Source of the DNA: Flavobacteriaceae bacterium
GTDB taxonomy: Bacteria; Bacteroidota; Bacteroidia; Flavobacteriales; Flavobacteriaceae
Assembly (NCBI GenBank): GCA_965224465.1
Contig: OZ245049.1
Location: 4,200,001-4,232,000 of the forward strand
Reading direction: 5' to 3'
Length of the DNA stretch: 32,000 nucleotides
The notes beneath the pieces are model-generated. The model had not been told where the DNA came from. It worked only from the letters and a program-made list of their open reading frames with translations, and did no database searches. Position 1 is the first letter of the stretch. Every line of letters begins with the position of its first letter. Of the stretch, positions 10,159 to 31,671 are shown in pieces. Both the position numbers and the translations under genes were made by a program.

Positions 10159-10318
10159 TAATACCAAACACATTTCCAAGTGACGGTTTAGAAATGTAAT
10201 TGTTTTTTGTTTTAGCTAGGCAGAAAAAGGAAGGATAGCTTAGTTATTGTTCTGTTTTTTAACAACGCTAGAACGTGAAATAAACTGTTTATAACGGTTG
10301 TCTTGGGTTGTAATTGGT
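10159..10318 (+). repeat. ~160-bp conserved intergenic element, copy 1
   Basis: Starts TAATACCA 15 nt after the PAP2 stop. Carries the invariant blocks TTTTTGTTTTAGCTA, GTTCTGTTTTTTAACAACGCTAGAACGT and TTGTAATTG, and the inverted repeats CATTTC/GAAATG (10171-10196) and TGTTCT/AGAACG (10248-10275). Confidence 0.9.
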
Positions 10319-10366
10319 TTAAAAGTTAAATATAAGATTTGGTAAAAGGCTTTTCTATGAAAAACC

Positions 10367-10374
10367 TATATTTG
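10367..10374 (+). promoter_or_regulatory. Bacteroidota -7 box (TATATTTG) upstream of the fucosidase gene
   Basis: Exact TAnnTTTG match 73 nt upstream of ATG 10447. Motif only. Confidence 0.4.
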
Positions 10375-10446
10375 TGATGAATCAATTGAATGTCAACCAA
10401 AAGTTGTGTTTGTACTTAAAATTCAGCTTTAATTTACTCTGTTTAT

Positions 10447-12678
10447 ATGAAAATCACAATACCGTTTATTTTTATGGCTTACCTATTGGTTTCTTGTGGG
10501 AATTCCGAGGAACTAAAAAAAGAAGTAAATAGCACCGAAGTTGTACTAGCTTCAGACAGTAAAGAAGCTATTATTTTTAAGGCGGCGCATACTGTTCCTA
10601 CAGCGAATCAATACAATGCGTTAAAAAATGAATTTATCGCCTTTATTCATTTTGGACCTAATACATTCACGCGTTTGGAATGGGGGACTGGGATGGAAGA
10701 CCCAGCGGTTTTTGATCTCAAAAACTTAGATACAGACCAGTGGTGTAAAGCTATGAAGTCTGCGGGGATAAAAATGGTGGTGTTTACTGCGAAACATCAC
10801 GATGGTTTTACTTTGTGGCAATCACGTTATACAAAACAGGGTGTTATGTCTTCTCCGTTTAAAAATGGAAAAGGAGATGTTATGAAAGCGTTGTCAGAAT
10901 CCTGTCACAAATTTGGATTAAAACTAGGAGTGTATTTGTCTCCTGCAGATTTATATCAGATAGAAAATAAAAACGGTTTGTATGGGAATTTAAGTAAACC
11001 TACCGAAAGAATTATTCCAAGACCAGTAGCAGGTCGTCCGTTTAAAAATAAAACGACTTTTAAATTTAAGGTAGATGATTATAATGAGTATTTTTTAAAT
11101 CAATTGTTTGAATTATTGACGGAATATGGGCCTATTTATGAAGTTTGGTTTGATGGAGCGCATCCAAAGAGAAAAGGAGGGCAGGAATATGATTATTTGG
11201 CATGGAAAAAATTAATTTCGACCCTGGCACCAGAAGCTGTTGTTTTTGGGAAACAAGATATTAGGTGGTGTGGGAATGAATCAGGTAAAACAAGAGCTAC
11301 GGAATGGAATATTATTCCTTTTCAGGAAGATCCAAGTCAAATGAATCGTTTTCCAGACCTCACTGGCGAATCTATTGGAAGTCGTAAAGAATTGTATGCT
11401 GCTAAATACCTCCATTATCAGTTTGCGGAAATAAATACCTCCATTAGGGAAGGTTGGTTTTATAGAGATGATACAAGACAAAAAGTACGTAATGCTGACG
11501 ATGTTTTTGATATTTATGAGCGCTCTGTAGGCGGGAATGCAGTTTTTTTGTTAAATATCCCACCAAATAGGGGTGGTAAGTTTTCGGAGGAGGATGTTGC
11601 AGTGTTAGAGGAGGTTGGGAAACGTATAAAAGAAACGTATGGAACAGATCTCTTTCTTGATGCCAAAGGCCCCGAAAAGGTGTTGGATCAGGACGAACTT
11701 AGTTTTGAACTGTTAAAAGATGAAAATCGGACTATAATAATAACAACACCTACTAAAATCACCATCAACCGCTTGTCTATTCAAGAAGCAATTAGCACGC
11801 ATAGTGAAAGGGTTGAGGAGCATGCTGTAGATGCTTGGTTAGAGGGGGCATGGAAAGAAATAGCAACAGGGACTAATGTGGGGTATAAGAAGGTTTTAAG
11901 ATTCCCTGAGGTAACTTCTAATATGTTTAGATTTAGAGTGACTAAGGCGCGTTTACAGCCTGCGATTGCGAAGATATCGGCACATTATTACAAGACAAGG
12001 CCTCCTCAATTGCTTATCTCAAGAAATAGAGAGGGCGTGCTTGTTATTACATCAAAAAAACATGATTTTAGTTGGAAGCCTCATGGAGAGGATGTGTTTG
12101 GGAACTTGCATGAGGGTTTTGAAATTAGATTTACATTAGATGGGACTTCTCCTTCAGAGAACGCAAATTTATTTGAGGGGGCTATTGTTGTTGAGTCAAA
12201 AGTAGTAAAAGCTGTAGCTATTGAAAAAGGACGTTTGGGAGGTGTGGCATCGGTTGATTTTGGATTGATAAAAAAGGAATGGAATGTATTGGACGTTGAT
12301 AGTGAAAGTGCAAAACATTTAAAGAATTTTGCTATTGATGAAAATCCAGAGACATACTGGGAAAGTGATTCAAAAGCAGGTTCTCATTATATAGCTGTTG
12401 ATTTGGGAGAGATTCATGCAGTTAAAGGGTTTTCTTATACACCTCAAACAGAAAATCAAGGAGGTATGATGGAGCAGGGTAGAATTTATACGAGTGTAGA
12501 TGGACGGGTGTGGAAAGTAATAGGAGATTTTGAGTTTGGTAACTTAATCAATGACCCTGTTAAGAGAAGGTATGATTTTAAGTCCAGCCTAGAAACGAGG
12601 TATCTTAAAATTGAATCAAAAACCATTGCAGGAGGGAAGAAGACAGTAGCGATTGCTGAATTGGGCTTTTATGAATAA
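10447..12678 (+). CDS. GH29 alpha-L-fucosidase lipoprotein with C-terminal F5/8 type C (discoidin) carbohydrate-binding domain
   Basis: Lipobox LLVSC. GH29 core FIHFGPNTFT..EWGTG...DQWCKAMKSAGIKMVVFTAKHHDGFTLWQSRYT. The C-terminus FAIDENPETYWESD...HYIAVDLGE...RYLKIES is discoidin-like. Confidence 0.85.
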   Translation: MKITIPFIFMAYLLVSCGNSEELKKEVNSTEVVLASDSKEAIIFKAAHTVPTANQYNALKNEFIAFIHFGPNTFTRLEWGTGMEDPAVFDLKNLDTDQWCKAMKSAGIKMVVFTAKHHDGFTLWQSRYTKQGVMSSPFKNGKGDVMKALSESCHKFGLKLGVYLSPADLYQIENKNGLYGNLSKPTERIIPRPVAGRPFKNKTTFKFKVDDYNEYFLNQLFELLTEYGPIYEVWFDGAHPKRKGGQEYDYLAWKKLISTLAPEAVVFGKQDIRWCGNESGKTRATEWNIIPFQEDPSQMNRFPDLTGESIGSRKELYAAKYLHYQFAEINTSIREGWFYRDDTRQKVRNADDVFDIYERSVGGNAVFLLNIPPNRGGKFSEEDVAVLEEVGKRIKETYGTDLFLDAKGPEKVLDQDELSFELLKDENRTIIITTPTKITINRLSIQEAISTHSERVEEHAVDAWLEGAWKEIATGTNVGYKKVLRFPEVTSNMFRFRVTKARLQPAIAKISAHYYKTRPPQLLISRNREGVLVITSKKHDFSWKPHGEDVFGNLHEGFEIRFTLDGTSPSENANLFEGAIVVESKVVKAVAIEKGRLGGVASVDFGLIKKEWNVLDVDSESAKHLKNFAIDENPETYWESDSKAGSHYIAVDLGEIHAVKGFSYTPQTENQGGMMEQGRIYTSVDGRVWKVIGDFEFGNLINDPVKRRYDFKSSLETRYLKIESKTIAGGKKTVAIAELGFYE

Positions 12679-12835
12679 TACCATTACATTTCCAAGTGAA
12701 GGTTTAGAAATGGAATTATTTTTTGTTTTAGCTAGACGAAAAACGGAAGGATAGCCTTTGTTATCGTTCTGTTTTTTAACAACGCTAAAACGTAAAATAA
12801 ACTATTTCTATCGGTCATTTTGGATTGTAATTGGT
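12676..12835 (+). repeat. ~160-bp conserved intergenic element, copy 2
   Basis: The element's first TAA is the fucosidase stop codon (12676-12678). Same blocks as copy 1: CATTTC/GAAATG at 12687-12712 and CGTTCT/AAAACG at 12765-12792. Confidence 0.9.
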
Positions 12836-12869
12836 GTAATAACCTGTAAATGAAATAGAATTATTTAAA

Positions 12870-12906
12870 ACCGATGCGTAGGTAGCTGTGCATCGGTATT
12901 TCTTTA
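12870..12906 (+). terminator. Candidate intrinsic terminator downstream of fucosidase and repeat copy 2
   Basis: ACCGATGC (12-nt loop) GCATCGGT followed by ATTTCTTTAT. TTTAAAA on the 5' side would also give a U-run on the minus strand. Confidence 0.5.
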
Positions 12907-12934
12907 TACGGTATTCAACATGTGGTATTACTGT

Positions 12935-12970
12935 AAAATAAAAATCCCACACTAATAAAAGTATGGGATT
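12935..12970 (-). terminator. Intrinsic terminator after tRNA-Phe copy A
   Basis: On the minus strand: AATCCCATA-loop-TGTGGGATT followed by TTTTTATTTT. Confidence 0.7.
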
Positions 12971-12972
12971 TG

Positions 12973-13048
12973 TGGTGGTACCTCCAGGAATCGAACCAGG
13001 GACACATGGATTTTCAGTCCATTGCTCTACCAACTGAGCTAAGGTACC
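12973..13048 (-). tRNA. tRNA-Phe (anticodon GAA), copy A
   Basis: The reverse complement reads GGTACCT TA GCTC AGTTGGTA GAGC A ATGGA CTGAAAA TCCAT GTGTC CCTGG TTCGATT CCAGG AGGTACC A CCA. This is a full 76-nt cloverleaf with T-loop TTCGATT and an encoded CCA. Confidence 0.95.
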
Positions 13049-13070
13049 TAACACTGCCGTTAAGCGGTTG

Positions 13071-13078
13071 CAAATATA
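13071..13078 (-). promoter_or_regulatory. -7 box (TATATTTG on the minus strand) for tRNA-Phe copy A
   Basis: Exact TAnnTTTG 23 nt upstream of the mature tRNA 5' end. It is duplicated with the tRNA unit. Confidence 0.5.
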
Positions 13079-13156
13079 AGCGCTTATCTGAATATAGCAA
13101 TAGAAAAACGAGGTTTTTTTTGTTTTTTTTATAAGGTGTTGAAACTCATGTAAAAG

Positions 13157-13189
13157 CAAAAAATCCCACACTAATAAAAGTATGGGATT
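13157..13189 (-). terminator. Intrinsic terminator after tRNA-Phe copy B
   Basis: Identical hairpin to 12943-12970, followed by a U-run (minus strand). Confidence 0.7.
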
Positions 13190-13191
13190 TG

Positions 13192-13267
13192 TGGTGGTAC
13201 CTCCAGGAATCGAACCAGGGACACATGGATTTTCAGTCCATTGCTCTACCAACTGAGCTAAGGTACC
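13192..13267 (-). tRNA. tRNA-Phe (anticodon GAA), copy B
   Basis: Sequence identical to copy A, offset by 219 bp. Confidence 0.95.
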
Positions 13268-13289
13268 TAACACTGCTGTTAAGCGGTTG

Positions 13290-13297
13290 CAAATATA
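13290..13297 (-). promoter_or_regulatory. -7 box (TATATTTG on the minus strand) for tRNA-Phe copy B
   Basis: Same motif and spacing as copy A. Confidence 0.5.
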
Positions 13298-13344
13298 AAA
13301 GCTTTTTTCTTATTAAACCTAGTGTTTTTGAAAAAATGTATTCG

Positions 13345-13352
13345 TATTTTTG
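13345..13352 (+). promoter_or_regulatory. -7 box (TATTTTTG) upstream of coaX
   Basis: Exact TAnnTTTG 20 nt upstream of ATG 13372. Confidence 0.45.
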
Positions 13353-13371
13353 GTAAATATTATTTAGAAGA

Positions 13372-14094
13372 ATGAATTTAATAATTGATGTAGGTAATAC
13401 ACGAATTAAGATTGCTGTTTTTCAGAGAGATGCCATTTTAATGAAGGAGGTAGTTGCTGAGGAATTTTTTTTAGAAAAAATTAAAAAAGTTATAAAAAAA
13501 TACAATTGCAGACAAGGAATCATATCTTCTGTAGGTTTTTTTGATAAAAACACGCTGAAAGAGGTACAAACTTTGATTCCGATGATCCTACTTTCGCATG
13601 CCTTAGATTTTCCTTTTAAGAATTTGTACACCACACCTCAAACCTTGGGGGTTGATCGTTTGGCATTAATTGCAGCCGCGGCTAAAATATATCCTCATAA
13701 AAATGTATTGGTGATAGACGCAGGTACCTGCATTACTTATGATTTTATTTCAAGTTCAAATGAGTATTTAGGAGGGAGTATTTCCTTAGGTTTAGAAATG
13801 CGTTTTAATGCATTACATACATTTACGACTAAATTACCGCGTGTAAAATCGTCTTTAAAACCTATTTTAATAGGGAATAGTACCCAAACATCTATACAAA
13901 GTGGAGTCGAAAACGGATTAATTCAAGAAATTTCGGGTTTTATTTTACAATATCAAGCTAAATTTCAGGAATTAACAATTGTTTTAACAGGAGGAGACTT
14001 AAATTTCTTGTCTAAAAGATTAAAAAATAGCATATTTGCCAATCCTAATTTTCTAATTAGGGGGTTAAACATAATATTGACACATAATAAATAA
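13372..14094 (+). CDS. coaX: Type III pantothenate kinase
   Basis: MNLIIDVGNTRIKIAVF (ASKHA phosphate-1 motif), LGVDRL, VIDAGTCITYD, LTGGD. Confidence 0.9.
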   Translation: MNLIIDVGNTRIKIAVFQRDAILMKEVVAEEFFLEKIKKVIKKYNCRQGIISSVGFFDKNTLKEVQTLIPMILLSHALDFPFKNLYTTPQTLGVDRLALIAAAAKIYPHKNVLVIDAGTCITYDFISSSNEYLGGSISLGLEMRFNALHTFTTKLPRVKSSLKPILIGNSTQTSIQSGVENGLIQEISGFILQYQAKFQELTIVLTGGDLNFLSKRLKNSIFANPNFLIRGLNIILTHNK

Positions 14095-14096
14095 CA

Positions 14097-15380
14097 ATGA
14101 CCAAAAAAATATTCCTGGTGTTTTTCGTTCTTATAACGACAAATAACTTCGCGCAAAAAAGCAATGTATCTGCTTATTCCTTTTTTGGAATAGGAGATGA
14201 GAGCTCTTCAAAAACAGTTGAACAGGTAAGTATGGGAGGTGTAAATGTGGCATTTTCTGATTTTTATCACTTGACATTTTCAAATCCAGCAGGATTGGCA
14301 TCCCTTCGCTTAACAAATTATTCTTTTGGTTTAAAAAACCAAAACATGTCTGTAAAGAATGCTACGAAGAGACAAAGTGCCTCTGTTTCTAATATTTCTT
14401 ATTTGGCTGTAGGAATTCCACTTGGTAAAATTGGAGGAATGGCTTTTGGTATAATTCCGAATTCATCTGTTGGCTATTCATTACAATCAAATGAATTGGA
14501 TACTGATGGGGAAATTTCGAAAGCTACATTGTTTTCTGGAGAAGGAGGGACGAGTAAAATATTTTTAGGAGCAGGTTTTAACGTTTTTAAAGGTTTGAAA
14601 CTTGGAATCCAAGGAGAGTATGTGTTTGGTAAAATCGAAAAAAATGTTTTGACCCAAGTTAAGAATGTGAGTAGAGCTACCAAATACGAAGTTGTAACAA
14701 ATGTATCTGGAATAAGTTTTAAAATTGGAGCTCAATATAAAAGGAAATTGAAAGACAAGCTTTATATTAGCGCCGGATTAATAGCTGCTTTGGGAAATGA
14801 AGTGAAGTCAAAAGGAGATGAGTATTTGTACTCTGTGGTTCTTTCTTCTACCGAAGTTGCGAAGGATACTATTTTAAATCAAAAAATCACTAGCTATTTT
14901 AACAAACCTCTAAAAACGAGTATTGGTGTTGGAATGGGAGAGGATAATAAATGGTTTCTAGGTGCGGATTATAGCTTTAGAAGTAAAGTTACCTTTTCTG
15001 GAGACTTAGAAAAAACGAACTCGAAATTAAGATATTCCAACTCAAGTAACATAGCTTTAGGAGGATTTTATATTCCTAAATTTAATTCTATTTCTAGTTA
15101 CTGGGATAGAGTGGCATATAGAGCTGGAGTGAAATTAGAGAATAACGGATTGATGTTTAATACGTCTAAAACGGCAGGCTCATTTACAGAGATTAGGGAT
15201 TTTGGCATGTCTTTTGGAGTAGGGTTACCAATCGGGAACAAACTGTCAGGTATAAATATTGGAGTTGAAATTGGAAAAAGAGGGACGACCTCAAATGGTT
15301 TGATAGAAGAAAATTACTTTAATTTTAACTTGAGTCTTTCGTTGACTGACAAGTGGTTTAAAAAACGAGAAATATTTTAA
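14097..15380 (+). CDS. Outer-membrane beta-barrel protein, uncharacterised (FadL/PorV-like pattern)
   Basis: Signal peptide ending NNFAQ. Alternating beta-strand pattern, SMGG...NPAGLA near the N-terminus, and a C-terminal ...KKREIF (terminal Phe). No specific family recognised. Confidence 0.6.
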   Translation: MTKKIFLVFFVLITTNNFAQKSNVSAYSFFGIGDESSSKTVEQVSMGGVNVAFSDFYHLTFSNPAGLASLRLTNYSFGLKNQNMSVKNATKRQSASVSNISYLAVGIPLGKIGGMAFGIIPNSSVGYSLQSNELDTDGEISKATLFSGEGGTSKIFLGAGFNVFKGLKLGIQGEYVFGKIEKNVLTQVKNVSRATKYEVVTNVSGISFKIGAQYKRKLKDKLYISAGLIAALGNEVKSKGDEYLYSVVLSSTEVAKDTILNQKITSYFNKPLKTSIGVGMGEDNKWFLGADYSFRSKVTFSGDLEKTNSKLRYSNSSNIALGGFYIPKFNSISSYWDRVAYRAGVKLENNGLMFNTSKTAGSFTEIRDFGMSFGVGLPIGNKLSGINIGVEIGKRGTTSNGLIEENYFNFNLSLSLTDKWFKKREIF

Positions 15381-15396
15381 GAATATAAAATAGAGA

Positions 15397-16752
15397 ATGA
15401 TGAAAAAAATTACACAAATTGTATTAGGCTTGATGATACTCCTTTCTGTAAGTTCAATTATTGGACAGTCACAGGATTGTAACATTAAGTACAACTTATT
15501 TAAAGGAGATTATAAAGCAAAAAAGTATGATGCTGCTTATGATAACTGGTTATGGGTTATGGATAGTTGTCCTACATTGTCGGTGAATATTTATAAGTAT
15601 GGTCTTAAAATTGCACAATATAAATTAAAAAATGCCGCAGACGCAGACAAGGAAACTTGTAAAGCTATGGTTATGCGTGTTTTTGAACAGAGAATGGAGC
15701 ATTTTCCTAAAAACTTGGCAAAAACCTATGACAATATAGCAACCTTTAAAAAAGGACAGGGTGCTTCTGAAGATGAAGTATTTAAATATTTGAAGATGGC
15801 GTATAAAGCAGATGTTACCAGTATGTCTGTTAAAAATATATACTCTTATTTCGATATCATATTAAAACAAAATAAAGACACAAATCCTCAGGTTGTTTTT
15901 GATTCTTATGATGATATTTTAGACGGTATTGAAAAGAAAAGAAATAGTTATTTAGCAAAAAGAGTTCCATTACAAGCAAGAGTGGATGCTGGAGAAAAGT
16001 TGAGTGCCAAAGATGCTAAAAAACTTAGAATTTACAATCAAATAGTAAATAACTTAGGTATTGCAGAAACAGGATTGGATCAAAAATTATCCGCTATTGC
16101 TACTTGTGAACGTTTAATCCCTTTGTATAAAAGAGATATTGAAGCAAATAAAGGAAATGGTCAATGGTTGAAAAGAGCAGTGTCTCGTATGTATAACAAA
16201 GGATGTAAAGAAGATCCGTTCTACGAAACGTTGGTAGAAGCTTATGTGGCTGCAGCACCATCACCAGATGCTTCTGTATTTTATGCAGGAATCTTGTTGA
16301 AAAAAGGGAATACTGCCAAAGCAATGGAGTATTACAAACAAGCCGTGGATCAAGAGTCGGATTCATTTAAGAAAGCGAAGTATTTGTATAAAATTGCACA
16401 GTCGTTGAGACAGAAAGGTCAGTACGGTAAAGCAAGAACATATGCAAATAGAGCCTTAGGATTTAATCCAAGCATGGGGAAAGCATATTTGTTAATATCA
16501 GGAATGTACGCAAAAAGTGCAAATAGATGTGGAAATAATGAGTTTGAGAAAAGAATGGTGTATGTTGCGGCATTAAATAAAGCCAGAAGAGCAAAAGTGG
16601 TAGATCCAAGTGTTTCTTCTGCAGCCAATCGTCATATTAGAAGTTATGCTTCTCAAATTCCAACTACAAAATTGATTTTTCAATTGGGTAAAAAATCTGG
16701 AGGAACGTATAGAATTGGATGTTGGATTGGTGAAACAGTTCGCATACCGTAA
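15397..16752 (+). CDS. Secreted tetratricopeptide-repeat-like protein
   Basis: Signal peptide, then an all-helical protein with TPR-like segments (NTAKAMEYYKQAV, GQYGKARTYANRALGFNPSMGKAY). Confidence 0.65.
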   Translation: MMKKITQIVLGLMILLSVSSIIGQSQDCNIKYNLFKGDYKAKKYDAAYDNWLWVMDSCPTLSVNIYKYGLKIAQYKLKNAADADKETCKAMVMRVFEQRMEHFPKNLAKTYDNIATFKKGQGASEDEVFKYLKMAYKADVTSMSVKNIYSYFDIILKQNKDTNPQVVFDSYDDILDGIEKKRNSYLAKRVPLQARVDAGEKLSAKDAKKLRIYNQIVNNLGIAETGLDQKLSAIATCERLIPLYKRDIEANKGNGQWLKRAVSRMYNKGCKEDPFYETLVEAYVAAAPSPDASVFYAGILLKKGNTAKAMEYYKQAVDQESDSFKKAKYLYKIAQSLRQKGQYGKARTYANRALGFNPSMGKAYLLISGMYAKSANRCGNNEFEKRMVYVAALNKARRAKVVDPSVSSAANRHIRSYASQIPTTKLIFQLGKKSGGTYRIGCWIGETVRIP

Positions 16753-16771
16753 ATAGAACCAAAAAAAATAA

Positions 16772-16779
16772 TATATTTG
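16772..16779 (+). promoter_or_regulatory. -7 box (TATATTTG) upstream of the lptC-like gene
   Basis: Exact TAnnTTTG. It lies only 5 nt before ATG 16784, which favours ATG 16799 as the real start. Confidence 0.4.
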
Positions 16780-16783
16780 TTGT

Positions 16784-17347
16784 ATGACAATAAACGTTAT
16801 GCATATCTTAAAGAGTATTGCTACCCTATTTATGGTGGCAATACTTTTTTCGTGTAAGAACAATGCAAAAGAAGTTCAGGATTTCTTAGCAGATAAAAAC
16901 CTTCCGATCGGAATTACAGAAAAAGTACATTTTGTTCACACGGATTCGGCAAGGGTAACAATGAAATTGTATTCATTGTTAATGTACGATTTTAGCAATA
17001 GGAAAGCGCATCCCTATTTTGAATTCCCCAAAGGAATTAAGATTACTACATTGGAGAAAAATGGAGACTCTGTTACTATTGCAGGAGGCTATGCTTTGCG
17101 CTACCTTAAAACCCGCGTTTCTGAAATAAAAGAACATGTAGTGATTCGGAATTATAAAAAAAAATTACGATTAGAAACTTCTCAATTGTATTGGGATGAG
17201 AATACTAATTATTTTTTTACAGATGTAGCGTTTACTTTTTATACGCAATTGGACACCATAAAAGGGGTTGGATTTGAGTCAAAAGATGATTTGAGCGAGA
17301 GTTGGGTGAAAGATTTAAGAGGAAAAGCAACTATTGAAACAGAATAA
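16784..17347 (+). CDS. lptC: LPS export periplasmic protein LptC-like lipoprotein
   Basis: Lipobox ILFSC, ~185 aa, beta-rich, with LETSQLYWDENTNYFFTDV...IKGVGFES. It sits before the CNNM/ppiD block, as is typical in Bacteroidota. The true start may be ATG 16799. Confidence 0.55.
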   Translation: MTINVMHILKSIATLFMVAILFSCKNNAKEVQDFLADKNLPIGITEKVHFVHTDSARVTMKLYSLLMYDFSNRKAHPYFEFPKGIKITTLEKNGDSVTIAGGYALRYLKTRVSEIKEHVVIRNYKKKLRLETSQLYWDENTNYFFTDVAFTFYTQLDTIKGVGFESKDDLSESWVKDLRGKATIETE

Positions 17348-17348
17348 T

Positions 17349-17531
17349 ATGGAAATTGTACGTAGAATTTTTGAATATGCTTATTTGTTAATTGCTCTGC
17401 TGTTGTTTCAGGGAGTGTATAGCATTTGGAATAAGGATAGAAATGATGCATATGTCTTACTTGTTTTTGCCTTTGCAGCAATAGGAATGTATGTGTTTAA
17501 AAAAATGATGAGAAAAAAAATTAATAAATAA
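17349..17531 (+). CDS. Small two-TM membrane protein (60 aa)
   Basis: ATG is 1 nt after the lptC stop. Two clear hydrophobic helices and a basic C-terminal tail (KKMMRKKINK). No family recognised. Confidence 0.5.
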   Translation: MEIVRRIFEYAYLLIALLLFQGVYSIWNKDRNDAYVLLVFAFAAIGMYVFKKMMRKKINK

Positions 17532-21093: not shown

Positions 21094-21127
21094 AAAAAAA
21101 AAGCGAGCTTTAGCTCGCTTTTTTTTA
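21094..21127 (+). terminator. Intrinsic terminator after ppiD
   Basis: AAAAAAAA-GCGAGC-TTTA-GCTCGC-TTTTTTTT. The stem is perfect and the flanking A/T runs also make it usable from the other strand. Confidence 0.85.
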
Positions 21128-21221
21128 TGCAGTTTCATTAGTGTATGTGTTTCAGTTTTTAGCGGCTAAAAAGAATTGTGTAATGCGTATTTGTCGGTCT
21201 TTTAGTGTAGGTAAAGAAGTG

Positions 21222-21381
21222 TAATCCCAAATGCATTTCCAAGAGACGGATTTGAAATGGAATTATTTTTTGTTTTAGCTAGGTAAAAATTCTAAGAATA
21301 GCCTTTGCTATCGTTCTGTTTTTTAACAACGCTAGAACGTAATAGAAACTATTTATATCGATTATTTTGGATTGTAATTGA
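21222..21381 (+). repeat. ~160-bp conserved intergenic element, copy 3
   Basis: Starts TAATCCCA. Carries all three invariant blocks. Lies between the ppiD terminator and the bidirectional terminator at 21411. Its 3' end (TTGTAATTGAATT) diverges from the other copies. Confidence 0.9.
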
Positions 21382-21410
21382 ATTACAAGTTGAATATTGA
21401 TTTTATGGCA

Positions 21411-21445
21411 TAAAAAAAGCCCTAACAATTGTTAGGGCTTTTTCT
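21411..21445. terminator. Bidirectional intrinsic terminator (rho on the minus strand; repeat copy 3 on the plus strand)
   Basis: A-run, the 22-nt palindrome AGCCCTAACAATTGTTAGGGCT, then a T-run. It lies 16 nt downstream of the rho stop. Confidence 0.85.
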
Positions 21446-21460: not shown

Positions 21461-23254
21461 TTATCCATTCATAGACATCAAAAATTCCTCATTTGAATTG
21501 GAATATTTAATTTTATCTTGGATGAATTCCATGGCTTCTATCGGGTTCATATCTGCAAGATATTTCCTAAGTACCCATAAACGTTGAACTGTTTTGGCGT
21601 CGAATAATAAGTCATCTCTACGAGTACTAGATCTTACGAGGTCAACCGCAGGGAATATACGTCTGTTTGAGATGTTTCTATCCAATTGTAATTCCATGTT
21701 ACCTGTACCTTTGAATTCTTCGAAAATCACCTCATCCATTTTAGAACCAGTATCTGTAAGAGCTGTTGCTATAATAGTTAGAGAGCCGCCGTTTTCAATA
21801 TTACGGGCTGCGCCAAAGAATCTTTTAGGTTTGTGTAATGCATTGGCATCAATACCTCCAGATAGTATTTTTCCTGAAGCAGGAGCAACGGTATTGTAAG
21901 CACGGGCTAGTCGTGTAATTGAATCTAATAAGATAACAACATCATGTCCGCATTCTACCAATCTTTTTGCTTTTTCTAAAACAATATTAGCAACACGTAC
22001 ATGTTTGTCTGCAGGTTCGTCAAAAGTAGAGGCTACAACCTCTCCTTTAACACTACGTTGCATATCTGTAACTTCCTCTGGTCGCTCATCAATCAATAAT
22101 ATAATTTGATATACCTCAGGGTGGTTTGCAGCAATTGCATTTGCTATATCTTTTAAGAGGATAGTTTTACCAGTTTTAGGCTGTGAAACAATCATACCTC
22201 TTTGTCCTTTTCCAATAGGTGAGAATAAATCTATAATCCGGGTAGATAAAGTACTTCCAGCTTTAGCTAAATTGAATTTCTCTTGTGGAAATAAAGGTGT
22301 CAAATGCTCAAAAGACACTCTGTCTCTTACTACATGTGGACTCAATCCGTTAATTTTTGATACTCTAATTAATGGGAAGTATTTTTCTCCATCTTTTGGA
22401 GGACGAACAATTCCTTTAACAGTGTCTCCAGTCTTAAGTCCAAATAATTTTATTTGAGATTGAGACAAGTAAATATCATCAGGGGAGGACAAGTAATTAT
22501 AGTCAGAAGATCTTAAAAAACCATACCCGTCAGGCATCATTTCTAAGACACCTTCACTTTCTATAATTCCATCAAATTCATAATCCGGTTCTCTAAATTT
22601 GTTACCACTTTTCTTTGGTTGGTTTTTAGCATTCGGATTCGGATTTGAATTAGGATTAGGATTCGGTTTGTTTTTGTTTTGTTGTTGTTGTTTGTCTTTT
22701 TTAGGAGAGTCTTCCTTTTTAGCAGTGTCTTCCTTTTCAGGAGTATCTTCCTTTTTAACAGGCTGTTGTTCTTTTTGAATCGGCTTGATTTCAGGCGAAC
22801 TTTCTTCTTTTTTTATACCTTCTTTTTTTTGTTCAGGTTCTGACGGTTTAGTGTCTGTTTCCTTCGTATCAATCACTTTTTCAGCGACTATTTCCTTCTC
22901 CTTTTTTTGGATCTTTTTATCCGTATCGTCTTCCTTTTTTTCTTTAGGAATTTTATTTTCTTCTACTTCTGGTGCTGGACTAGGCTTAGAGAAAATTTCG
23001 TTGATATTCTTTTTCTCTTTTTGAGAAGTTTTCGCAGCGTGCTTTTTGTTCGTAGAATTTTTAACAATTCGCTTGCGTTTGGGCTTAGGTTTTGCCTCTG
23101 GGGTTTCAGTTTTCGGGTTGGATGCCTGAACATCTAAGATTAAGTAAACTAAATCAAGCTTTTTTAGTTGCTTGTATTTACTTGCTCCAATAGTTTTAGC
23201 AATTTCCTGTAACTGCACAAGGGTCTTTTCCTTGAGTTGTGAAATTTCAAACAT
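21461..23254 (-). CDS. rho: Transcription termination factor Rho with a ~170-aa low-complexity N-terminal insertion
   Basis: Rho N-terminal domain ([19 protein letters not shown]), RNA-binding domain ([14 protein letters not shown]), Walker [16 protein letters not shown], and the C-terminus [21 protein letters not shown]...[16 protein letters not shown]-rich spacer includes [11 protein letters not shown]. Confidence 0.95.
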
Positions 23255-24694: not shown

Positions 24695-24748
24695 TCTTAT
24701 TTCTTGTGTATTTACCTAGGCTATTATTAAAAGATTTTAATTTCTTGT

Positions 24749-26443
24749 ATGTCCTTGTTTAATCAAATAGTTCTAAGATTGCTGTTTATAACCTTTGTAA
24801 ATTCCTTTGCAGGGACATTGCCTTTAAATCCTTCTTTTTTGAACCACCATATCTCCTCATATAAGTCTTTCGATTTTTATGAAAGAGAAAAGATAATCTC
24901 TGACGGTAATAAAAGTCTAAGCATTGTCTTACTTTTTGATTGTAAGAAGAGTGAAGAGGTCTTAGGTGATAGTCGTCAGTCAATTAGTTTTAGTTGTTTA
25001 ATGGAGAAACACGTGTCCTTAGGCGGGGATTGTAGTCCTGCATTATTGTGGTCTCATAAGACGGATAATCAGCGTGAAAATAATGCCGATTTTTTAATGA
25101 AAAGTGTCGTTTTTCACGGCATAGATAAGTTAGATACGGCTATCTATCATTCTAAAAATCCGACTTTGTATATCGCTGATTTTCCTGTTTTAAAACAGGG
25201 AAGTACACTTATTAATAGGAAGTTGTCTCCTGTTTATTCTCTGAAGAATGATGTTGATACTGCGCTAGAATTAGGGGATAGTATTCAGCTAGAGTTAGGT
25301 GGTTCTGATCTGGGATCTGTGATCCTTAATAGTATTGCTGCGACCTATTTTATGCAAGGAGCTTATAATAAATCTCTAAAATCATATAAAAGAGTATTGG
25401 ATCTTTCTAAGAAGGGGAATACAGATACGCATCGGACTTCCCGTTGTCTTTCGTATCTTAATTTAGCAAATTCATATTCTGGATTAGGGGATTTTAAACA
25501 AGCGTTTTATCATCAAGACATGTATTTTTCTTTAAATGATAGTTTACAAAACGAATTCAAACGTAAAGAAATAGCCAAGATTCAAGCAGAATATACCTTA
25601 CTTAAAAATATCACGGAAATTAACAATTCAAAATTAAAAGTAAAAAAAGCACAATTGATCTCTTATGGTCTTGTTTTTTTGTTGTTCTTGATCGTTATCG
25701 CAGGGTGGTTTTTATTCAAGCTGGCCAAACTTAATAGAAAAAATATGCGATTGGAGTTTTATCAGCAGCAGTTGTTAAATGAAAATAAACTTAAGAAAAT
25801 GGAGAGTCTGATGCAAGTACGTTGTATGAATGCTGCATTGGATGGTAGATTAGAAGAGCGCAAAAACATAGCATGTATTTTACATAATAATGTGAGTTCC
25901 TTGCTGGCTTCCGCTAGTTTACATTTACATGCGAGTAGAGCCATATTGAATTGTGAAGTGCCTGAGGAGATTAATAAGTCCCAAGAGATTTTGTCTGAAG
26001 CCGCCCAAGAAATTAGAGACTTATCTCATACCTTAATGTCTTCACTTTTATTAAAATTTGGACTCGACCATGCCATTCTCGATTTATGTGAACAAGCATC
26101 CAATAGTAAGCTTTGTATTAAAGGGGAGTGTGTTGGTTTGAAGAGATATGATCAAAACTTCGAAATTAAAATGCACGCTGTTGTTAATGAATTGGTGAAT
26201 AATATTCTAAAACACAGCGGAGGAGATAAGGCATCTGTTGTTATTGAAGATAAAGGTTCAAAGATTCACCTTTTAATTACCGATAATGGTATGGGTTTTG
26301 AAATGGATAAAGTACTAGAAAAAGAAGGCTTGGGCTTGTCTCAAGTCAAGTATAGAGTTTTAAGTATGGATGGTGTGTTTATCGTGAATTCTAAGCTAGG
26401 AATAGGCACGGAAATATTTGTTTCAGTGCCTGTTAAACCTTAG
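24749..26443 (+). CDS. Sensor histidine kinase (HisKA_3/HATPase_c) with an extracytoplasmic TPR-containing sensor region
   Basis: Signal or anchor sequence, a ~290-aa N-terminal region with TPR-like repeats, and the TM segment LISYGLVFLLFLIVIAGWFLF. H-box ILHNNVSSLL, N-box ELVNNILKHS, G-boxes DNGMGF and GLGLSQV. Confidence 0.85.
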   Translation: MSLFNQIVLRLLFITFVNSFAGTLPLNPSFLNHHISSYKSFDFYEREKIISDGNKSLSIVLLFDCKKSEEVLGDSRQSISFSCLMEKHVSLGGDCSPALLWSHKTDNQRENNADFLMKSVVFHGIDKLDTAIYHSKNPTLYIADFPVLKQGSTLINRKLSPVYSLKNDVDTALELGDSIQLELGGSDLGSVILNSIAATYFMQGAYNKSLKSYKRVLDLSKKGNTDTHRTSRCLSYLNLANSYSGLGDFKQAFYHQDMYFSLNDSLQNEFKRKEIAKIQAEYTLLKNITEINNSKLKVKKAQLISYGLVFLLFLIVIAGWFLFKLAKLNRKNMRLEFYQQQLLNENKLKKMESLMQVRCMNAALDGRLEERKNIACILHNNVSSLLASASLHLHASRAILNCEVPEEINKSQEILSEAAQEIRDLSHTLMSSLLLKFGLDHAILDLCEQASNSKLCIKGECVGLKRYDQNFEIKMHAVVNELVNNILKHSGGDKASVVIEDKGSKIHLLITDNGMGFEMDKVLEKEGLGLSQVKYRVLSMDGVFIVNSKLGIGTEIFVSVPVKP

Positions 26444-26937
26444 TTTCTTTGTTCCATTTCTATGATTTCTAAATCGTAAATTCGTTCTTTTTCTATTTTA
26501 AAACGTACCATAGTACGCACCTTGTGGAAGCCATGCTTTCCAACCGCTCCTGGGTTTATATGTAAAATATTTAATTTTTTATCGAACATTACTTTTAAAA
26601 TATGTGAATGTCCACTTATAAAGATATTCGGTCTTTCGAGGGATAGTTTTTGTCGGATACGTGTATCGTATTTATTGGGGTATCCTCCTATATGTGTCAT
26701 CCAAACCTGTACGTTTTCTATCTTAAATTTATTGTCTAAAGGGAATTCTTTGCGAATATTATGATCGTCAATGTTTCCATAAACAGCTCTTAAAACTCCC
26801 TTTTTTTTAATGTTATCTGTAACATCGAGGCTTCCGATGTCTCCTGCGTGCCATATCTCATCCGCTTGTTTTACATGGTTTAAAATCTGTTCGTCCAAAT
26901 ATCCATGGGTGTCAGATAAGAGCAATATTTTTTTCAT
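26440..26937 (-). CDS. YfcE/MJ0936-family metallophosphoesterase
   Basis: LLLSDTHGY, HAGDIGS, GNID, ISGHSH motifs. 165 aa. Its stop overlaps the HK stop in a convergent arrangement. Confidence 0.85.
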   Translation of the reverse strand: MKKILLLSDTHGYLDEQILNHVKQADEIWHAGDIGSLDVTDNIKKKGVLRAVYGNIDDHNIRKEFPLDNKFKIENVQVWMTHIGGYPNKYDTRIRQKLSLERPNIFISGHSHILKVMFDKKLNILHINPGAVGKHGFHKVRTMVRFKIEKERIYDLEIIEMEQRN

Positions 26938-26981
26938 TGAGTTGTATTCGAATTAAGTTCTGTTAAAATACCGAAAAGCTG

Positions 26982-26989
26982 TATCTTTG
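26982..26989 (+). promoter_or_regulatory. -7 box (TATCTTTG) upstream of truA
   Basis: Exact TAnnTTTG 25 nt upstream of the TTG start at 27014. Confidence 0.45.
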
Positions 26990-27013
26990 TGAATTCAAAA
27001 ATACACGATTCAA

Positions 27014-27766
27014 TTGAGATATTTTCTAGAATTAAGCTATAATGGTAAAAATTATCATGGCTGGCAAATACAACCCCACGATACATCGGTACAGCAAGTG
27101 GTGCAAGAGTGCTTGACTACGATATTGAGAGTTCCAATAGAAGTGGTTGCCGCAGGAAGAACAGATGCTGGAGTACATGCCTCTCGGATATTTGTACATA
27201 TGGATTTTGACCGTGTGTTGGACGAAAAGGATATGTTGTATAAAATGAATAGCTTATTTCCTTTTGATATTGCTGCTAGAAGCTTGGTGCGTGTAAAAGA
27301 AGATGCACATGCGCGATTTACAGCTGTCTCTAGAAGTTATGAATACCATATTAGTTTAGAGAAAAATCCGTTTGCTAAGGATTATTCTTTGCAAGTGGTA
27401 AATCAGCAGTTTGATATTGAAAAAATGAATCAAGCAGCTTCTTTATTATTGAATTATAAAAATTTTAAATGTTTTTCTAAGACAAAAACAGATGTAAAAA
27501 CGTATAATTGTGATATTACGAGTGCAGAATGGAAGATAAATGGGAAAGAACTTGTTTTTTATATTTCTGCAGATCGGTTTTTGCGAAACATGGTAAGGGC
27601 CATTGTAGGAACTTTATTGAAAGTTGGAAAAGGAAAAATGACGATAGAACAATTTGAAAATGTGATACAAAGCAAGGATAGACGAAATGCAGGTACTTCT
27701 ATGCCAGCCTGTGGCTTGTTTTTAACCCAAGTAGGATATCCGTTAGCAATCTTTGATTATGAATAA
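27014..27766 (+). CDS. truA: tRNA pseudouridine(38-40) synthase TruA
   Basis: MRYFLELSYNGKNYHGWQIQ, the catalytic GRTDAGVHA, and FLRNMVRAIVGTL. TTG start codon. Confidence 0.9.
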   Translation: MRYFLELSYNGKNYHGWQIQPHDTSVQQVVQECLTTILRVPIEVVAAGRTDAGVHASRIFVHMDFDRVLDEKDMLYKMNSLFPFDIAARSLVRVKEDAHARFTAVSRSYEYHISLEKNPFAKDYSLQVVNQQFDIEKMNQAASLLLNYKNFKCFSKTKTDVKTYNCDITSAEWKINGKELVFYISADRFLRNMVRAIVGTLLKVGKGKMTIEQFENVIQSKDRRNAGTSMPACGLFLTQVGYPLAIFDYE

Positions 27767-29528
27767 AAAAACAACTGGAAATGCATTTGATGCTGCGGTT
27801 TTTACCCGCTTGATGAAATTTGCTCAAAATTATAGATGGCAATTTTTCCTGTCTGTTTCCGCAGCTATTTTATTGTCTGTGTTTGCCGCTGCAAGACCCT
27901 ACTTATTAAAAGAAATAGTAGATGTTCATATGTTGGCTAACAAAGATCCTGAAGGCTTGCTCTTTTATTCCTTATTAGTAGTTGCTGTTCTTTTTATAGA
28001 AGTTTTTTTACAATTTATATTTATACATTCGGCAAATTGGTTGGGACAACACATTATTAGCGATATTAGAGCGGTGCTATTTAAACATATGCTTAATTTT
28101 AAGATGACATATTTTGATAATGCATCGGTTGGAAAATTAGTGACAAGGGTGGTTTCTGATACAGAGACTATTGCTCAGTTTTTTAGCCAAGGCTTGTTTA
28201 TGATTGTAAGCGATGTGTTAAAAATGATATTTATTGCCGCATTGATGCTGTATATGAATTGGAAATTGGCTTTAATTGCTTTTTTGGTATTGCCTATATT
28301 GTTGTATGCGACGCGTGTTTTTCAGATAGCCATCAAAGGGGCTTTTCAAGATGTGAGGAAACAAGTGTCAGAACTTAATGGTTTTGTACAAGAGCGCGTA
28401 TCTGGAATGCGTATTGTTCAATTGTTTAATAGGGAACAAATAGAACGGGAAAAATTTATTAAAATAAATGAAAGTCATAAAAATGCTCAAATAAGAACTG
28501 TTTGGTATTATTCTATATTTTTTCCTATTGCGGAGATTTTGTCATCCATAGCTGTTGGGTTATTGGTGTGGTACGGAGGTGTACAAGTGGCAGCCGGAGA
28601 GCAGGTGTCTGTTGGAGATGTTATTTCTTTTATCATGATGGCGCAGATGTTGTTTAGACCTCTTCGTCAAATAGCGGATAAATTTAATACACTCCAAATG
28701 GGGATGGTTGCAGGAAATAGGGTTTTTGAAGTGCTAGATACAGAAAGTCAGATAGAAAAATCAGGACAGGTAACCGCTCATAATTTTAAAGGTGTTATTG
28801 AGTTTGATCAAGTTCGTTTTAGTTATGTGAAAGATCAAGAAGTACTCAAAGGGATTAGTTTTAAAGTAGAAGCCGGTGAAACGGTGGCGATAGTAGGAGC
28901 TACTGGAGCAGGAAAATCTACGATTGTCAATTTGGTAAACCGTTTTTATGAAATACAAGATGGTGTAATCTCTGTGGATGGCGTAAATATAAAAGATTAT
29001 ATCGTGTCAACTTTAAGAAATGAAATAGCAGTAGTGTTACAAGATGTTTTCTTGTTCTCGGATTCTATTTATAATAATATCGTTTTAAATAATACTGATA
29101 TTCCTTTAGAAAAAGTGATTGAAGCTGCGAAATTAATAGGGATTCATGAATTTATAATGAGTTTGCCTGGTGGGTATTCTTATAATGTAAGAGAGCGAGG
29201 AGTTATGTTGTCCTCTGGACAGCGTCAATTAATTTCTTTTTTGAGAGCCTATATCAGTAAGCCAAGTATTTTAATTTTAGATGAAGCTACTTCGTCTATT
29301 GATACCTATTCTGAGCAATTAATTCAAAATGCAACAGAGGCCATTACTCAAAATCAGACCTCAATTATTATAGCTCATAGATTGACCACAGTAAAAAATG
29401 CTGATCGAATTATTGTGATGGATCAGGGTGAAATTATGGAGATAGGTTCGCATAAAGAACTATTGGAAAAAGAGGGCTTCTATAAAAATTTATACGATAT
29501 GCAATTTGCTTCAGGAGAAATAATATAG
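27753..29528 (+). CDS. ABC transporter, fused permease/ATPase (MsbA-like exporter)
   Basis: 6-TM ABC_membrane domain, then Walker A GATGAGKST, signature LSSGQRQ and Walker B ILILDEATS. Overlaps truA by 14 nt (alternative ATG at 27759). Confidence 0.9.
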   Translation: MIMNKKTTGNAFDAAVFTRLMKFAQNYRWQFFLSVSAAILLSVFAAARPYLLKEIVDVHMLANKDPEGLLFYSLLVVAVLFIEVFLQFIFIHSANWLGQHIISDIRAVLFKHMLNFKMTYFDNASVGKLVTRVVSDTETIAQFFSQGLFMIVSDVLKMIFIAALMLYMNWKLALIAFLVLPILLYATRVFQIAIKGAFQDVRKQVSELNGFVQERVSGMRIVQLFNREQIEREKFIKINESHKNAQIRTVWYYSIFFPIAEILSSIAVGLLVWYGGVQVAAGEQVSVGDVISFIMMAQMLFRPLRQIADKFNTLQMGMVAGNRVFEVLDTESQIEKSGQVTAHNFKGVIEFDQVRFSYVKDQEVLKGISFKVEAGETVAIVGATGAGKSTIVNLVNRFYEIQDGVISVDGVNIKDYIVSTLRNEIAVVLQDVFLFSDSIYNNIVLNNTDIPLEKVIEAAKLIGIHEFIMSLPGGYSYNVRERGVMLSSGQRQLISFLRAYISKPSILILDEATSSIDTYSEQLIQNATEAITQNQTSIIIAHRLTTVKNADRIIVMDQGEIMEIGSHKELLEKEGFYKNLYDMQFASGEII

Positions 29529-29555
29529 AAACAAATTGCAATAGCTTGTTTTTAG

Positions 29556-30779
29556 TTAAGGTGTTGTTTTTAATGATTTTAATAGCCAAGCACATAAAAA
29601 CACTCCTATAATAGAAAGACATCCCATCAATATCCAATTGCTGTTGTATCCGTAGGTGTCAATTATTTCCATTCCTACTTTTGCGCTGAATATATGAGCT
29701 AAAGAAAATGACATTGCGTATAGTGCCATGTATTGTCCTTCTTTTCCTTTGGTTGCTCTATTCATTGCAAATGTGTTTGTAAATGGAAAAGCAAGCATTT
29801 CTGCAAGGGTAACGATTATCATACTAACAATTAGTATTCCGATCCAAGAGATTGGTAATAAAAAAAAGCTACATGAAAATAATACCATACTAAATAGTAT
29901 TATTTTTATCTTGTTCCATAACGTTTTTTCTATATAGTGGATAGCTGGCATTTCTAAAAAAAAGATAAGCAAGCCGTTTAAGGACATAAGTAAGCCTATT
30001 TCCACTTCTGTGAGTCCGTGTACTTCCTTATAAAAAAGAGGCATGGTTGTAAATAATTGAAAAAACACAAAACCCATTAAAAACATAATAGCTAAAAATA
30101 TCCAATAAGGTTTGTCTTTGTATATAGAAATGGTTTTGTTTTTTTGAAACTCTTCTTTTGTTGTTTCTTTAATCTCTGGTGTGTTTATCTTTTTTTCTTT
30201 TAAAACTGTTTTAAATACTAAAATTGCCGAAATACAGGTGAGTCCATCTATCCAAAATAATCCTTTGTAACTTAAGAAAGATATAATAATCCCTCCTAAG
30301 AAAGGACCCAGTGAAAATCCTAAATTAATGGCCAAGCGGACTAATGTTAATGATCTAGTTTGGTTTTTAGGTTTACTGTACGCCTTAAGAGAGACATACA
30401 TGGCAGGTCTAAATGTGTCTGCTATGGTCATAGTGATAAATATCCCAATACTAAATTCAGTAAAAGTACTCGCAAATTGTAAGCCTAAAAAACAAAGTCC
30501 CGTTAAGAGTAAACTCCAAACCATTACTTTGTAAAATCCAAATTTATCTGTAAGTTTTCCGCCAAGCCATGAGCCCGCAAGAGAACCAAGTCCAAAGACA
30601 CTCATTATCCAACCTACATTACTTAAAGAAAAATTTAAGTAGTCTGTTAGGTAGAGTGATAAAAAGGGTAAAACCATGGTGCCAGCCCTATTGATAAATG
30701 TTACAAGTGCAAGCCACCAAATATCGTTTGATAGCCCAGAAAATGATGCTTTATAGTTTGTTAATAGTTTTCTTACCAT
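29556..30779 (-). CDS. MFS transporter
   Basis: 407 aa, ~12 TM helices. Motifs WLGGKLTDKFG (motif A-like) and INRAGTMVLPFLSLYL. Confidence 0.85.
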   Translation of the reverse strand: MVRKLLTNYKASFSGLSNDIWWLALVTFINRAGTMVLPFLSLYLTDYLNFSLSNVGWIMSVFGLGSLAGSWLGGKLTDKFGFYKVMVWSLLLTGLCFLGLQFASTFTEFSIGIFITMTIADTFRPAMYVSLKAYSKPKNQTRSLTLVRLAINLGFSLGPFLGGIIISFLSYKGLFWIDGLTCISAILVFKTVLKEKKINTPEIKETTKEEFQKNKTISIYKDKPYWIFLAIMFLMGFVFFQLFTTMPLFYKEVHGLTEVEIGLLMSLNGLLIFFLEMPAIHYIEKTLWNKIKIILFSMVLFSCSFFLLPISWIGILIVSMIIVTLAEMLAFPFTNTFAMNRATKGKEGQYMALYAMSFSLAHIFSAKVGMEIIDTYGYNSNWILMGCLSIIGVFLCAWLLKSLKTTP

Positions 30780-30782
30780 AGT

Positions 30783-30816
30783 ATAAAAATAAAAAACCCG
30801 GCGATGTGCCGGGTTT
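30783..30816 (-). terminator. Strong intrinsic terminator ending 3-4 nt upstream of the MFS start codon (attenuator candidate)
   Basis: On the minus strand: AAACCCGGC-ACATC-GCCGGGTTT (perfect 9-bp stem) followed by TTTATTTTTAT, then ACT-ATG. Confidence 0.75.
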
Positions 30817-30946
30817 AAATTGTTTTGAAATATTGTATATAAGTACTATCCATTCATGTCAATTTTTCCGGGGGTTCAGTGGAACCACGCGCGTATACTT
30901 TTTGATATGTGAATAATAGATGTTCATTTATAAGCTGTTTGAAAAT

Positions 30947-30954
30947 CAAAACTA
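30947..30954 (-). promoter_or_regulatory. -7 box (TAGTTTTG on the minus strand) for the MFS leader transcript
   Basis: Exact TAnnTTTG ~130 nt upstream of the terminator at 30783-30816. Motif only. Confidence 0.35.
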
Positions 30955-31184
30955 CATTATTTTTTAATTTCTTCGTTCTTTTATTTGTTATATTTGAATG
31001 CTGTATTTGTGATAGTAGGTTTTAACCTTCTTTTTTGCTTATAGATTGTACATAAAAAATAAAAACAATAAAAAAGAGAAGGCTTTTAAGTGATGCGTTT
31101 ACCCTACTTATAGTTGGGTCTTGGACTGCTTAGTATGCGTTTTAGTGATTTTAAGTGGGATGTTATCTAGAAATCAGTATTTTA

Positions 31185-31296
31185 GTTTTCGGAAGTAGAT
31201 GGCTTTGGATTTAGTTCCCAGAGGCACTTCCCTAAAATAGAACATCGTTTTCCTGAAGTATACCTCGTGTCTTTGCGGCGAGACTATTGATTTACA
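31185..31296 (+). repeat. Hairpin-repeat family 2, copy B
   Basis: Aligns by eye with 5753-5836 (see that feature), with a longer central spacer. Confidence 0.4.
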
Positions 31297-31510
31297 AACG
31301 AGAAATTCACTGATATTTTAAGGTGAAATAAAGAAATAATTGGGTGCTTATTTCTGTGAGAGAACATTATGAAATTGTGCATGAATTGCTATATTGTAAA
31401 GGCTAAAAAAAAACTATTTATGCGTTTTTTTTAAAGGTAATTTTAATAGCAAACGTATCAAATTATTTAAACAAAACCAATGAATTACAAATTGTTTGTC
31501 CATCGGTTAT

Positions 31511-31671
31511 TAATGCCAAATACATTTTCAAGTGACGGTTTAGAAATGGGATTAGTTTTTGTTTTAGCTAAGCGATAATTCTAAGGATAGCCTTAGTTAT
31601 CGTTCTGTTTTTTAACAACGCTAGAACGTGAAATTAACTATTTATATCGGTTATTTTGGATTGTAATTGGT
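31511..31671 (+). repeat. ~160-bp conserved intergenic element, copy 4
   Basis: Starts TAATGCCA. All three invariant blocks are present. Hairpin 1 carries a C-to-T change (CATTTT/GAAATG). Lies ~80 nt upstream of the DUF1684 gene. Confidence 0.9.

Follow-up and report, generated by a model that had tools for sequence, protein, structure and literature searches.

A palindromic intergenic repeat family, probably MITE-like, in a Flavobacteriaceae genome

What kind of element recurs four times, always on the same strand, within 32 kb of Flavobacteriaceae DNA? In this work we have used computational approaches to answer this question for a 32-kb stretch (the window, as we call the whole of it hereafter) of an AT-rich Flavobacteriaceae genome represented by a single contig of 5,241,564 bp. 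A sequence-only reading had pointed to four copies of an intergenic element of about 160 bp, offered either as a structured RNA or as a family resembling MITEs (miniature inverted-repeat transposable elements). Our analyses favour the second possibility: the element is probably a small, non-autonomous, palindromic intergenic repeat family, MITE-like and of the same kind as ERIC, Correia and YPAL. This reading fits better because the copies are palindromes along their whole length, are flanked by TAA or TA repeats, lie at non-orthologous loci, include a half-copy and have a narrow taxonomic range, whereas the RNA half of the proposal gained no positive support.

The four same-strand copies are where they had been reported. 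A profile hidden Markov model (HMM) built from the copies and run with nhmmer, and a covariance model (CM) detect all of them (nhmmer E = 8e-54 to 1e-51; CM 176-183 bits), although the true boundaries are a few bases wider than the ~160-bp intervals first given, and neither model finds any copy in the window beyond these four. A repeat finder groups them as a family, D1, with four members of 159 nt, all on the + strand. The unit is of ~158 bp (T-ACCAA...TTGGT-N) and reaches up to ~169 bp with its flanks. That it does not code for a protein had been stated before and is borne out by stop codons in 6/6 frames and by the lack of a shared start codon; a small-peptide gene was ruled out by the stop in copy 1, by the absence of a common start and by changes that are mostly non-synonymous. 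Both this size (~158-169 bp, where MITEs range from 50 to 800 bp) and the presence of stops in all frames are those of a MITE.

The family extends beyond the window. When an invariant 20-mer was compared with one genome per species (185,579 species), ten loci were recovered, and two of them are true copies, both in the marine metagenome-assembled genome (MAG) 'Flavobacteriaceae bacterium NORP167'. The other eight were discarded as chance matches, seven of them lying inside one conserved coding sequence found in Flagellimonas, Maribacter, Winogradskyella and an uncultured Flavobacteriaceae MAG. The NORP167 copies, L010 and L003, are full-length (E ~1e-36 to 1e-45) and occupy unrelated loci, one after the thrS-infC-rplT terminator and the other with a terminator on either side, those of an unknown gene and an HMA-domain gene. 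A homologous insertion of ~23 nt, placed at one and the same point inside both, indicates a lineage-specific subfamily; some ERIC copies similarly bear insertions at fixed internal sites. In L003 (~4840-4880, - strand) the insertion makes a perfect 12-bp inverted repeat of the invariant block, TTTTTTAACAAC-GCTA-GTTGTTAAAAAA. Comparison of the translated element with 5.8 billion predicted proteins gave a single open reading frame (ORF) of 46 aa, P0121, on the window's own contig. It corresponds to the reverse strand of the element's 3' half and then diverges, and because it is identical to none of the window copies and matches the 3' half only, it points to a truncated fifth copy elsewhere in the same genome. 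The dispersal expected of a MITE is therefore seen, with four copies, a half-copy and the two copies in NORP167, all beside unrelated genes. Three viral scans and BLAST searches against phages and plasmids returned no copy, and of the 26 loci that a two-block pattern retrieved from metagenomes none is a true copy.

The copies are without exception imperfect palindromes over their full length, and the + strand of each folds as a single rod of 52-63 pairs, with z-scores of -5 to -9.7 across copies. Examples are copy 2 (minimum free energy -60.5 kcal/mol, z = -9.7; -37.8 on the - strand), copy 4 (-48.5 kcal/mol, z = -5.1; -21.8 on the - strand) and copy 1 (-46.6 versus -23.0 kcal/mol for the - strand), and in 6/6 copies, those of NORP167 included, the + strand has the more stable fold of the two, by 5-27 kcal/mol. 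Of the cells in the alignment of the six sequences, 93% are paired, against 38-54% when the partners are slid. The - strand also matches the model weakly, as the element is a palindrome. The segment between GCTA and TAGC had been described as variable, like the loop of a hairpin. It does vary, with two apical types (copies 1/2 versus copies 3/4), but it is not a loop: it forms the 5' side of the apical stem and pairs with the conserved 3' block in two alternative registers.

The conservation of the element is markedly uneven. In the direct alignment of the four window copies, mean column identity is 80%, and the blocks TTTTTGTTTTAGCTA and TTGTAATTG, noted earlier as invariant, are indeed unchanged in 4/4 copies, as is a 28-nt block in three of the four, copy 2 bearing a single G to A change. 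GUUUUUUAACAAC is likewise an invariant block of the element. The blocks UUUUUGUUUUAG and GUUCUGUUUUUUAACAACGCUAG, also invariant, are partly unpaired in the fold, and paired columns are more conserved than unpaired ones. Once the six sequences are aligned, substitutions prove to be strongly clustered: on both sides all of the outer 10-14 columns vary, whereas the longest invariant run spans 21 columns (TTCTGTTTTTTAACAACGCTA...), with p = 5e-5 by permutation and p = 2e-4 in a runs test. Pairwise identity of the six copies is 75-87% and star-like, and identity between the genomes equals that within them. The copies are old, with genome-specific subfamilies, and at these identities no recent burst is visible.

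The borders of the element suggest how it may have been inserted. The arrangement TAA, T-ACCAA ... TTGGT-N, TAA is found in 5/6 copies, the exception being copy 3, which has TAC on its right; the ends previously described as TAAT-N-CCA and TAATTGG apply to all window copies but copy 3, which ends in TAATTGA. The TAA on the left of copy 2 is at the same time the natural stop of the alpha-L-fucosidase ORF (10447-12678), whose product (...AELDFFE*) stops at a position conserved in its orthologues. Since this TAA is thus the gene's own, a pre-existing TA(A) is the likely target, and on the simplest reading of the sequence it would have been used as the target and then duplicated. We propose that the family spread as copies inserted at TA or TAA in the AT-rich DNA immediately downstream of genes, that the target site would be duplicated upon insertion, and that the enzyme responsible would be a transposase whose gene lies in another part of the genome or has since been lost. 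Copies 1 and 2 should be read through, because they sit between a stop codon and a terminator, and if they are transcribed, their + strand RNA would form a hairpin of 50-60 pairs. Correia elements duplicate their TA target, and on co-transcription they give rise to long hairpins in the RNA. If ERIC and Correia are a guide, the hairpin of the window element could alter the stability of the mRNA 3' end or offer a site to RNase III. In short, a mechanism of transposition, a TA(A) duplication and any effect on RNA are all deduced from the features of the copies, and a passive hairpin in the transcripts carrying copies 1 and 2 is likely.

Several observations weigh against the MITE-like reading. 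The termini are the most variable part of the element and the interior blocks are invariant. Transposase-bound terminal inverted repeats (TIRs) usually show the reverse pattern, with conserved termini, and those of Correia elements are well conserved over 26 bp. The invariant interior suggests constraint on the internal sequence. MITEs have TIRs of at least 10-15 bp; in the window element the TIR proper is short and imperfect (ACCAAATACATTTCCAAG against the reverse complement of the right end, ~14/18 by eye), and the TAA at the borders could simply belong to the element itself. The window ORFs include no transposase, and no autonomous insertion sequence (IS) whose ends match came to light in the window. 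Moreover, in a strand-symmetric scoring of the folded-back element, G·T outnumbers A·C on the + strand by 64:17 (3.8:1; these cells are not independent of each other), which leaves room for selection on a single-stranded + form.

These same observations feed the alternative that the copies are functional structured RNAs made from the + strand, either cis-acting hairpins of the 3' or 5' untranslated region (UTR) or rod-like small RNAs (sRNAs), in which UUUUUGUUUUAG and GUUCUGUUUUUUAACAACGCUAG would be the sites where a protein or target RNA binds and which would have spread by duplication and not by transposition. We consider it rather unlikely. It would account for the better folding of the + strand in every copy, for the excess of G·U over A·C, for several G·U pairs conserved in both genomes, for clustered substitutions with an invariant interior and variable ends, and for the location of copies 1 and 2 between stop codon and terminator, co-oriented with the flanking genes; the equal identity between and within genomes would fit purifying selection. 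Other results count against it. Covariation, the test proposed for a conserved structure, gave compensatory changes in 0/52 pairs and a score of 0.126, equalled by 0.130 in shuffled alignments, with the low power of six sequences. Rfam 15, whose families include 6S-Flavo, Flavo-1 and sRNAs, contains no match to any full copy, even when the limit is relaxed from the gathering threshold to E <= 1; the NORP167 copies have none either, so that the family stays unrecognised, as the sequence-only reading had it. The sole nearby Rfam signal, a sub-threshold match to MicC, is driven by the terminator after copy 3. By reading of the sequence, a promoter of the Bacteroidetes type, TAnnTTTG preceded by TTG, is not conserved in or before the copies; the lack of a conserved TAnnTTTG motif argues against an independent sRNA gene. 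A 6S-like RNA was rejected for want of an Rfam match and of a central bubble in the fold. Three of the six copies (copy 3, L010 and L003) are downstream of the intrinsic terminator of a co-oriented gene, and the family is seen in two genomes only.

The strand asymmetry deserves a closer look. The compositional skew of this strand is unusually strong, and nearly all genes of the window are on the + strand; any argument from strand asymmetry in the region is affected by it. Intergenic DNA without the elements has a GC skew of +0.21 and an AT skew of -0.07, and the elements themselves +0.23 and -0.08, while third codon positions of + strand genes reach a GC skew of +0.30 and the whole window +0.18. 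Strand-biased mutation behind such an excess of G over C and of T over A makes some G·T enrichment on the + strand expected, and the G/T richness of the elements is that of the replichore background, so mutation bias explains part of it. As the background intergenic skew equals that of the element, the G·U asymmetry is weakened as proof of an RNA. By our rough estimate, background skew can nevertheless explain at most a ratio of ~1.75:1, so that the observed 3.8:1 is suggestive of something more. L003 keeps the G·T bias without a matching local skew, though its bias may be merely inherited. With no covariation, no promoter, half of the copies behind terminators and this skewed background, neither a dedicated RNA gene nor an obligatory UTR element is supported. 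A related proposal, an undescribed rod-shaped RNA of ~170 nt of marine Flavobacteriaceae with the invariant, partly single-stranded UUUUUGUUUUAG/GUUCUGUUUUUUAACAACGCUAG as binding platform for a protein or RNA target and the MITE-like form as mere vehicle, is quite unlikely in our judgement; in its favour are an interior kept while the termini decay, the equality of between- and within-genome identity and the G·U excess above the skew. To our knowledge, the phylum of the host lacks Hfq.

Could the element instead move or recombine as a folded single DNA strand, as a palindrome-associated element derived from IS200/IS605, a REP/RAYT-type unit or an attC-like site? This would explain strand-specific G·T pairs, tolerated on one strand only, together with the uniform orientation: the strand that bears all four window copies is rich in G/T and probably the leading one. 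Copy 2 also shares bases with a stop codon, and copies 1 and 2 enclose one gene in direct orientation, much as attC sites do with a cassette. We hold it improbable, since the window has no Y1 transposase, RAYT, TnpB or integrase, no copy has paired RYYYAAC / GTTRRRY core sites on either strand, each element forms one whole-element hairpin and not two small subterminal ones, and many housekeeping genes lie between copies 3 and 4, so that there is no cassette array. The same orientation of 4/4 copies has p = 0.125 by chance. An integron attC site as such was rejected on the absence of paired core sites in any copy. That the copies merely reflect local segmental duplication or faulty assembly, with no family behind them, has very little to recommend it; the sequence-only reading had named a local duplication artefact among the outcomes that would refute it: the four known full copies of this genome do lie within 22 kb, but they differ by 13-19% and have unrelated flanks, a fifth, truncated copy is on the same contig, and two more are in another organism at different loci. 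The divergence of the copies, their unrelated flanks and their presence in that other organism exclude the artefact.

The genes around the copies are of housekeeping types: a sulfatase-type protein, DUF5686, an epimerase, PAP2, alpha-L-fucosidase, CoaX and CNNM, and further a PpiD-like protein, Rho, a two-component system, TruA, an ABC exporter and an MFS transporter. Among the scanned ORFs of the window, none encodes a transposase, a reverse transcriptase, TnpB or an integrase, which agrees with the earlier statement that no transposase is near and that the surroundings are housekeeping DNA. Copy 1 starts 12 nt past the end of the PAP2 gene (9296-10144, stop codon included), lies ~120 nt upstream of where the fucosidase gene starts, and like copy 2 has a stop codon before it and a hairpin after it. 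The start of copy 2 is on the stop codon of the fucosidase gene, and the terminator that follows it puts it in the 3' UTR of the fucosidase transcript. Copies 2 and 3 had both been placed between a stop codon and a terminator. This is right for copy 2, whereas copy 3 is already cut off by the bidirectional terminator at ~21094-21127, and lies between two terminators of convergent genes; the terminator scan misses the former because the A and T runs extend its stem. The second is shared with rho, which runs convergently on the - strand (21461-23254). Copy 4 ends ~70 nt upstream of a + strand ORF starting at 31749. Coordinates of the copies, with their borders, and of these terminators are collected in Table 1.

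Table 1. Positions in the window of the element copies, their borders and the neighbouring terminators.
Feature	Position	Strand	Evidence or detail
Copy 1	10156-10324	+	nhmmer E = 1.2e-52; CM 177 bits
Copy 1 core (T-ACCAA...TTGGT-T)	10162-10319	+	TAA at 10159-10161 and 10320-10322
Copy 2	12674-12840	+	nhmmer E = 3.2e-52; CM 183 bits
Copy 2 core	12679-12836	+	TAA at 12676-12678 and 12837-12839
Copy 3	21220-21388	+	nhmmer E = 1e-51; CM 176 bits
Copy 3 flanks	21222-21224 (left); 21384-21386 (right)		TAA left; TAC right
Copy 4	31509-31677	+	nhmmer E = 8e-54; CM 180 bits
Copy 4 core	31514-31672	+	TAA at 31511-31513 and 31673-31675
Intrinsic terminator after copy 2	12870-12897	+	Terminator scan
Bidirectional terminator between PpiD-like gene and copy 3	~21094-21127		A-run, GCGAGC-TTTA-GCTCGC, T-run; read from sequence
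Terminator hairpin between copy 3 and rho 3' end	21414-21443		Terminator scan

The gene order from the DUF2147 gene to the PAP2 gene matches an uncultured Algibacter contig (L045), and the match stops exactly at copy 1; the next gene, that of the fucosidase, has copy 1 on one side and copy 2 on the other, in direct orientation. The copies may mark a rearrangement or gene-relocation junction around the fucosidase. Its orthologues in the three nearest relatives share 74-79% identity, and two of the three (77-79%) are in SusC/SusD loci. At the fucosidase and PAP2 orthologous loci of relatives, no copy lies beside the genes, and the closest relatives found (62-79% protein identity) have no synteny at the copy sites.

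Other features of the window were noted in passing. Of real RNA genes it has just a pair, two tRNA-Phe(GAA) genes of identical sequence (12973-13048 and 13192-13267, - strand). They belong to a tandem duplication of 219 bp with 98% identity (region 12940-13304), and each has its own terminator hairpin. The region 30780-31500 (- strand), which separates copy 4 from the MFS transporter gene (29556-30779, - strand), has ~730 nt without an ORF >42 aa, and a - strand intrinsic terminator (30816 to 30794) is located ~15 nt upstream of the MFS start codon. From its sequence the region looks like a long leader or attenuator, possibly of the riboswitch type; it has no Rfam match at E <= 1, and its fold z-score is -1.8.

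How does the family compare with repeats already described? In ERIC-type MITEs both termini carry the motif 5'-TA-3' besides TIRs, and the size of comparable repeats is 104-168 bp (PMC3184786). The element resembles ERIC/IRU and the YPAL/RU-2 of Yersinia (127-168 bp), which are intergenic imperfect palindromes, often inside transcription units. The internal sequence of ERIC is well conserved between species, and in the window element too the interior is more conserved than the termini. Unlike ERIC, with which it has no sequence similarity, it belongs to another phylum (Flavobacteriaceae), has been seen so far in two genomes only and is known here from sequence alone. The Correia elements (NEMIS/CREE) of Neisseria are non-coding MITEs of ~104-157 bp (PMC3184786), and the window element is likewise non-coding, of similar size and adjoins genes. 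Correia elements have an IHF site and outward promoters (PMC3184786), whereas the window element shows no promoter motif and is least conserved at its termini. The bcr1 repeat of the Bacillus cereus group is a dispersed repeat of ~155 bp with short flanking direct repeats, a non-conserved distribution and a stable predicted RNA (PMC3184786); it is transcribed and shows compensatory changes (PMC3184786), which the window element lacks, and it forms a cruciform with two stem-loops where the window element is a single rod. Like attC sites, which are used as a folded single strand, the copies are imperfect palindromes that follow or overlap stop codons in one orientation; unlike them, they have no R''/R' core sites, integrase or cassette array, and their length is ~165 bp.

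One further repeat was set apart from the family. In the metagenomes Ga0126336/Ga0099819 (L014, L016, L024, L026, L028, L030 and L033), a repeat shares TTTTT(C)TGTTTTAG, a 40-nt spacer, TGTTTTTTAACAAC and then CTAG. Its unit is of >300 nt, on ORF-poor, eukaryote-like contigs, and it has no Rfam match. In both, a stem of 5-6 bp surrounds the second block (AGAGG/CCTCT in the metagenome repeat, CGTTCT/AGAACG in the window element), and the matches are slightly above our chance expectation. We treat it as unrelated and the resemblance as probably a coincidence, neither the HMM nor the CM detecting it.

What does the finding mean for these bacteria? A literature search with sequence strings of the element found no paper containing them, so the family is probably undescribed as a named one. 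The kind is not new, since MITEs have been catalogued in thousands in Flavobacterium (PMC11602168). Greater importance would come only if the invariant interior blocks prove to be an RNA or protein-binding module, which we think unlikely. If the element is MITE- or ERIC-like, its value would be mostly practical, as a marker of insertion and rearrangement sites: one copy lies exactly where the Algibacter synteny ends, and two bracket a fucosidase that in two of the three closest relatives examined belongs to a polysaccharide-utilisation locus. It would also have placed hairpins of 50-60 bp into at least two 3' UTRs, and may serve as a marker for strain typing.

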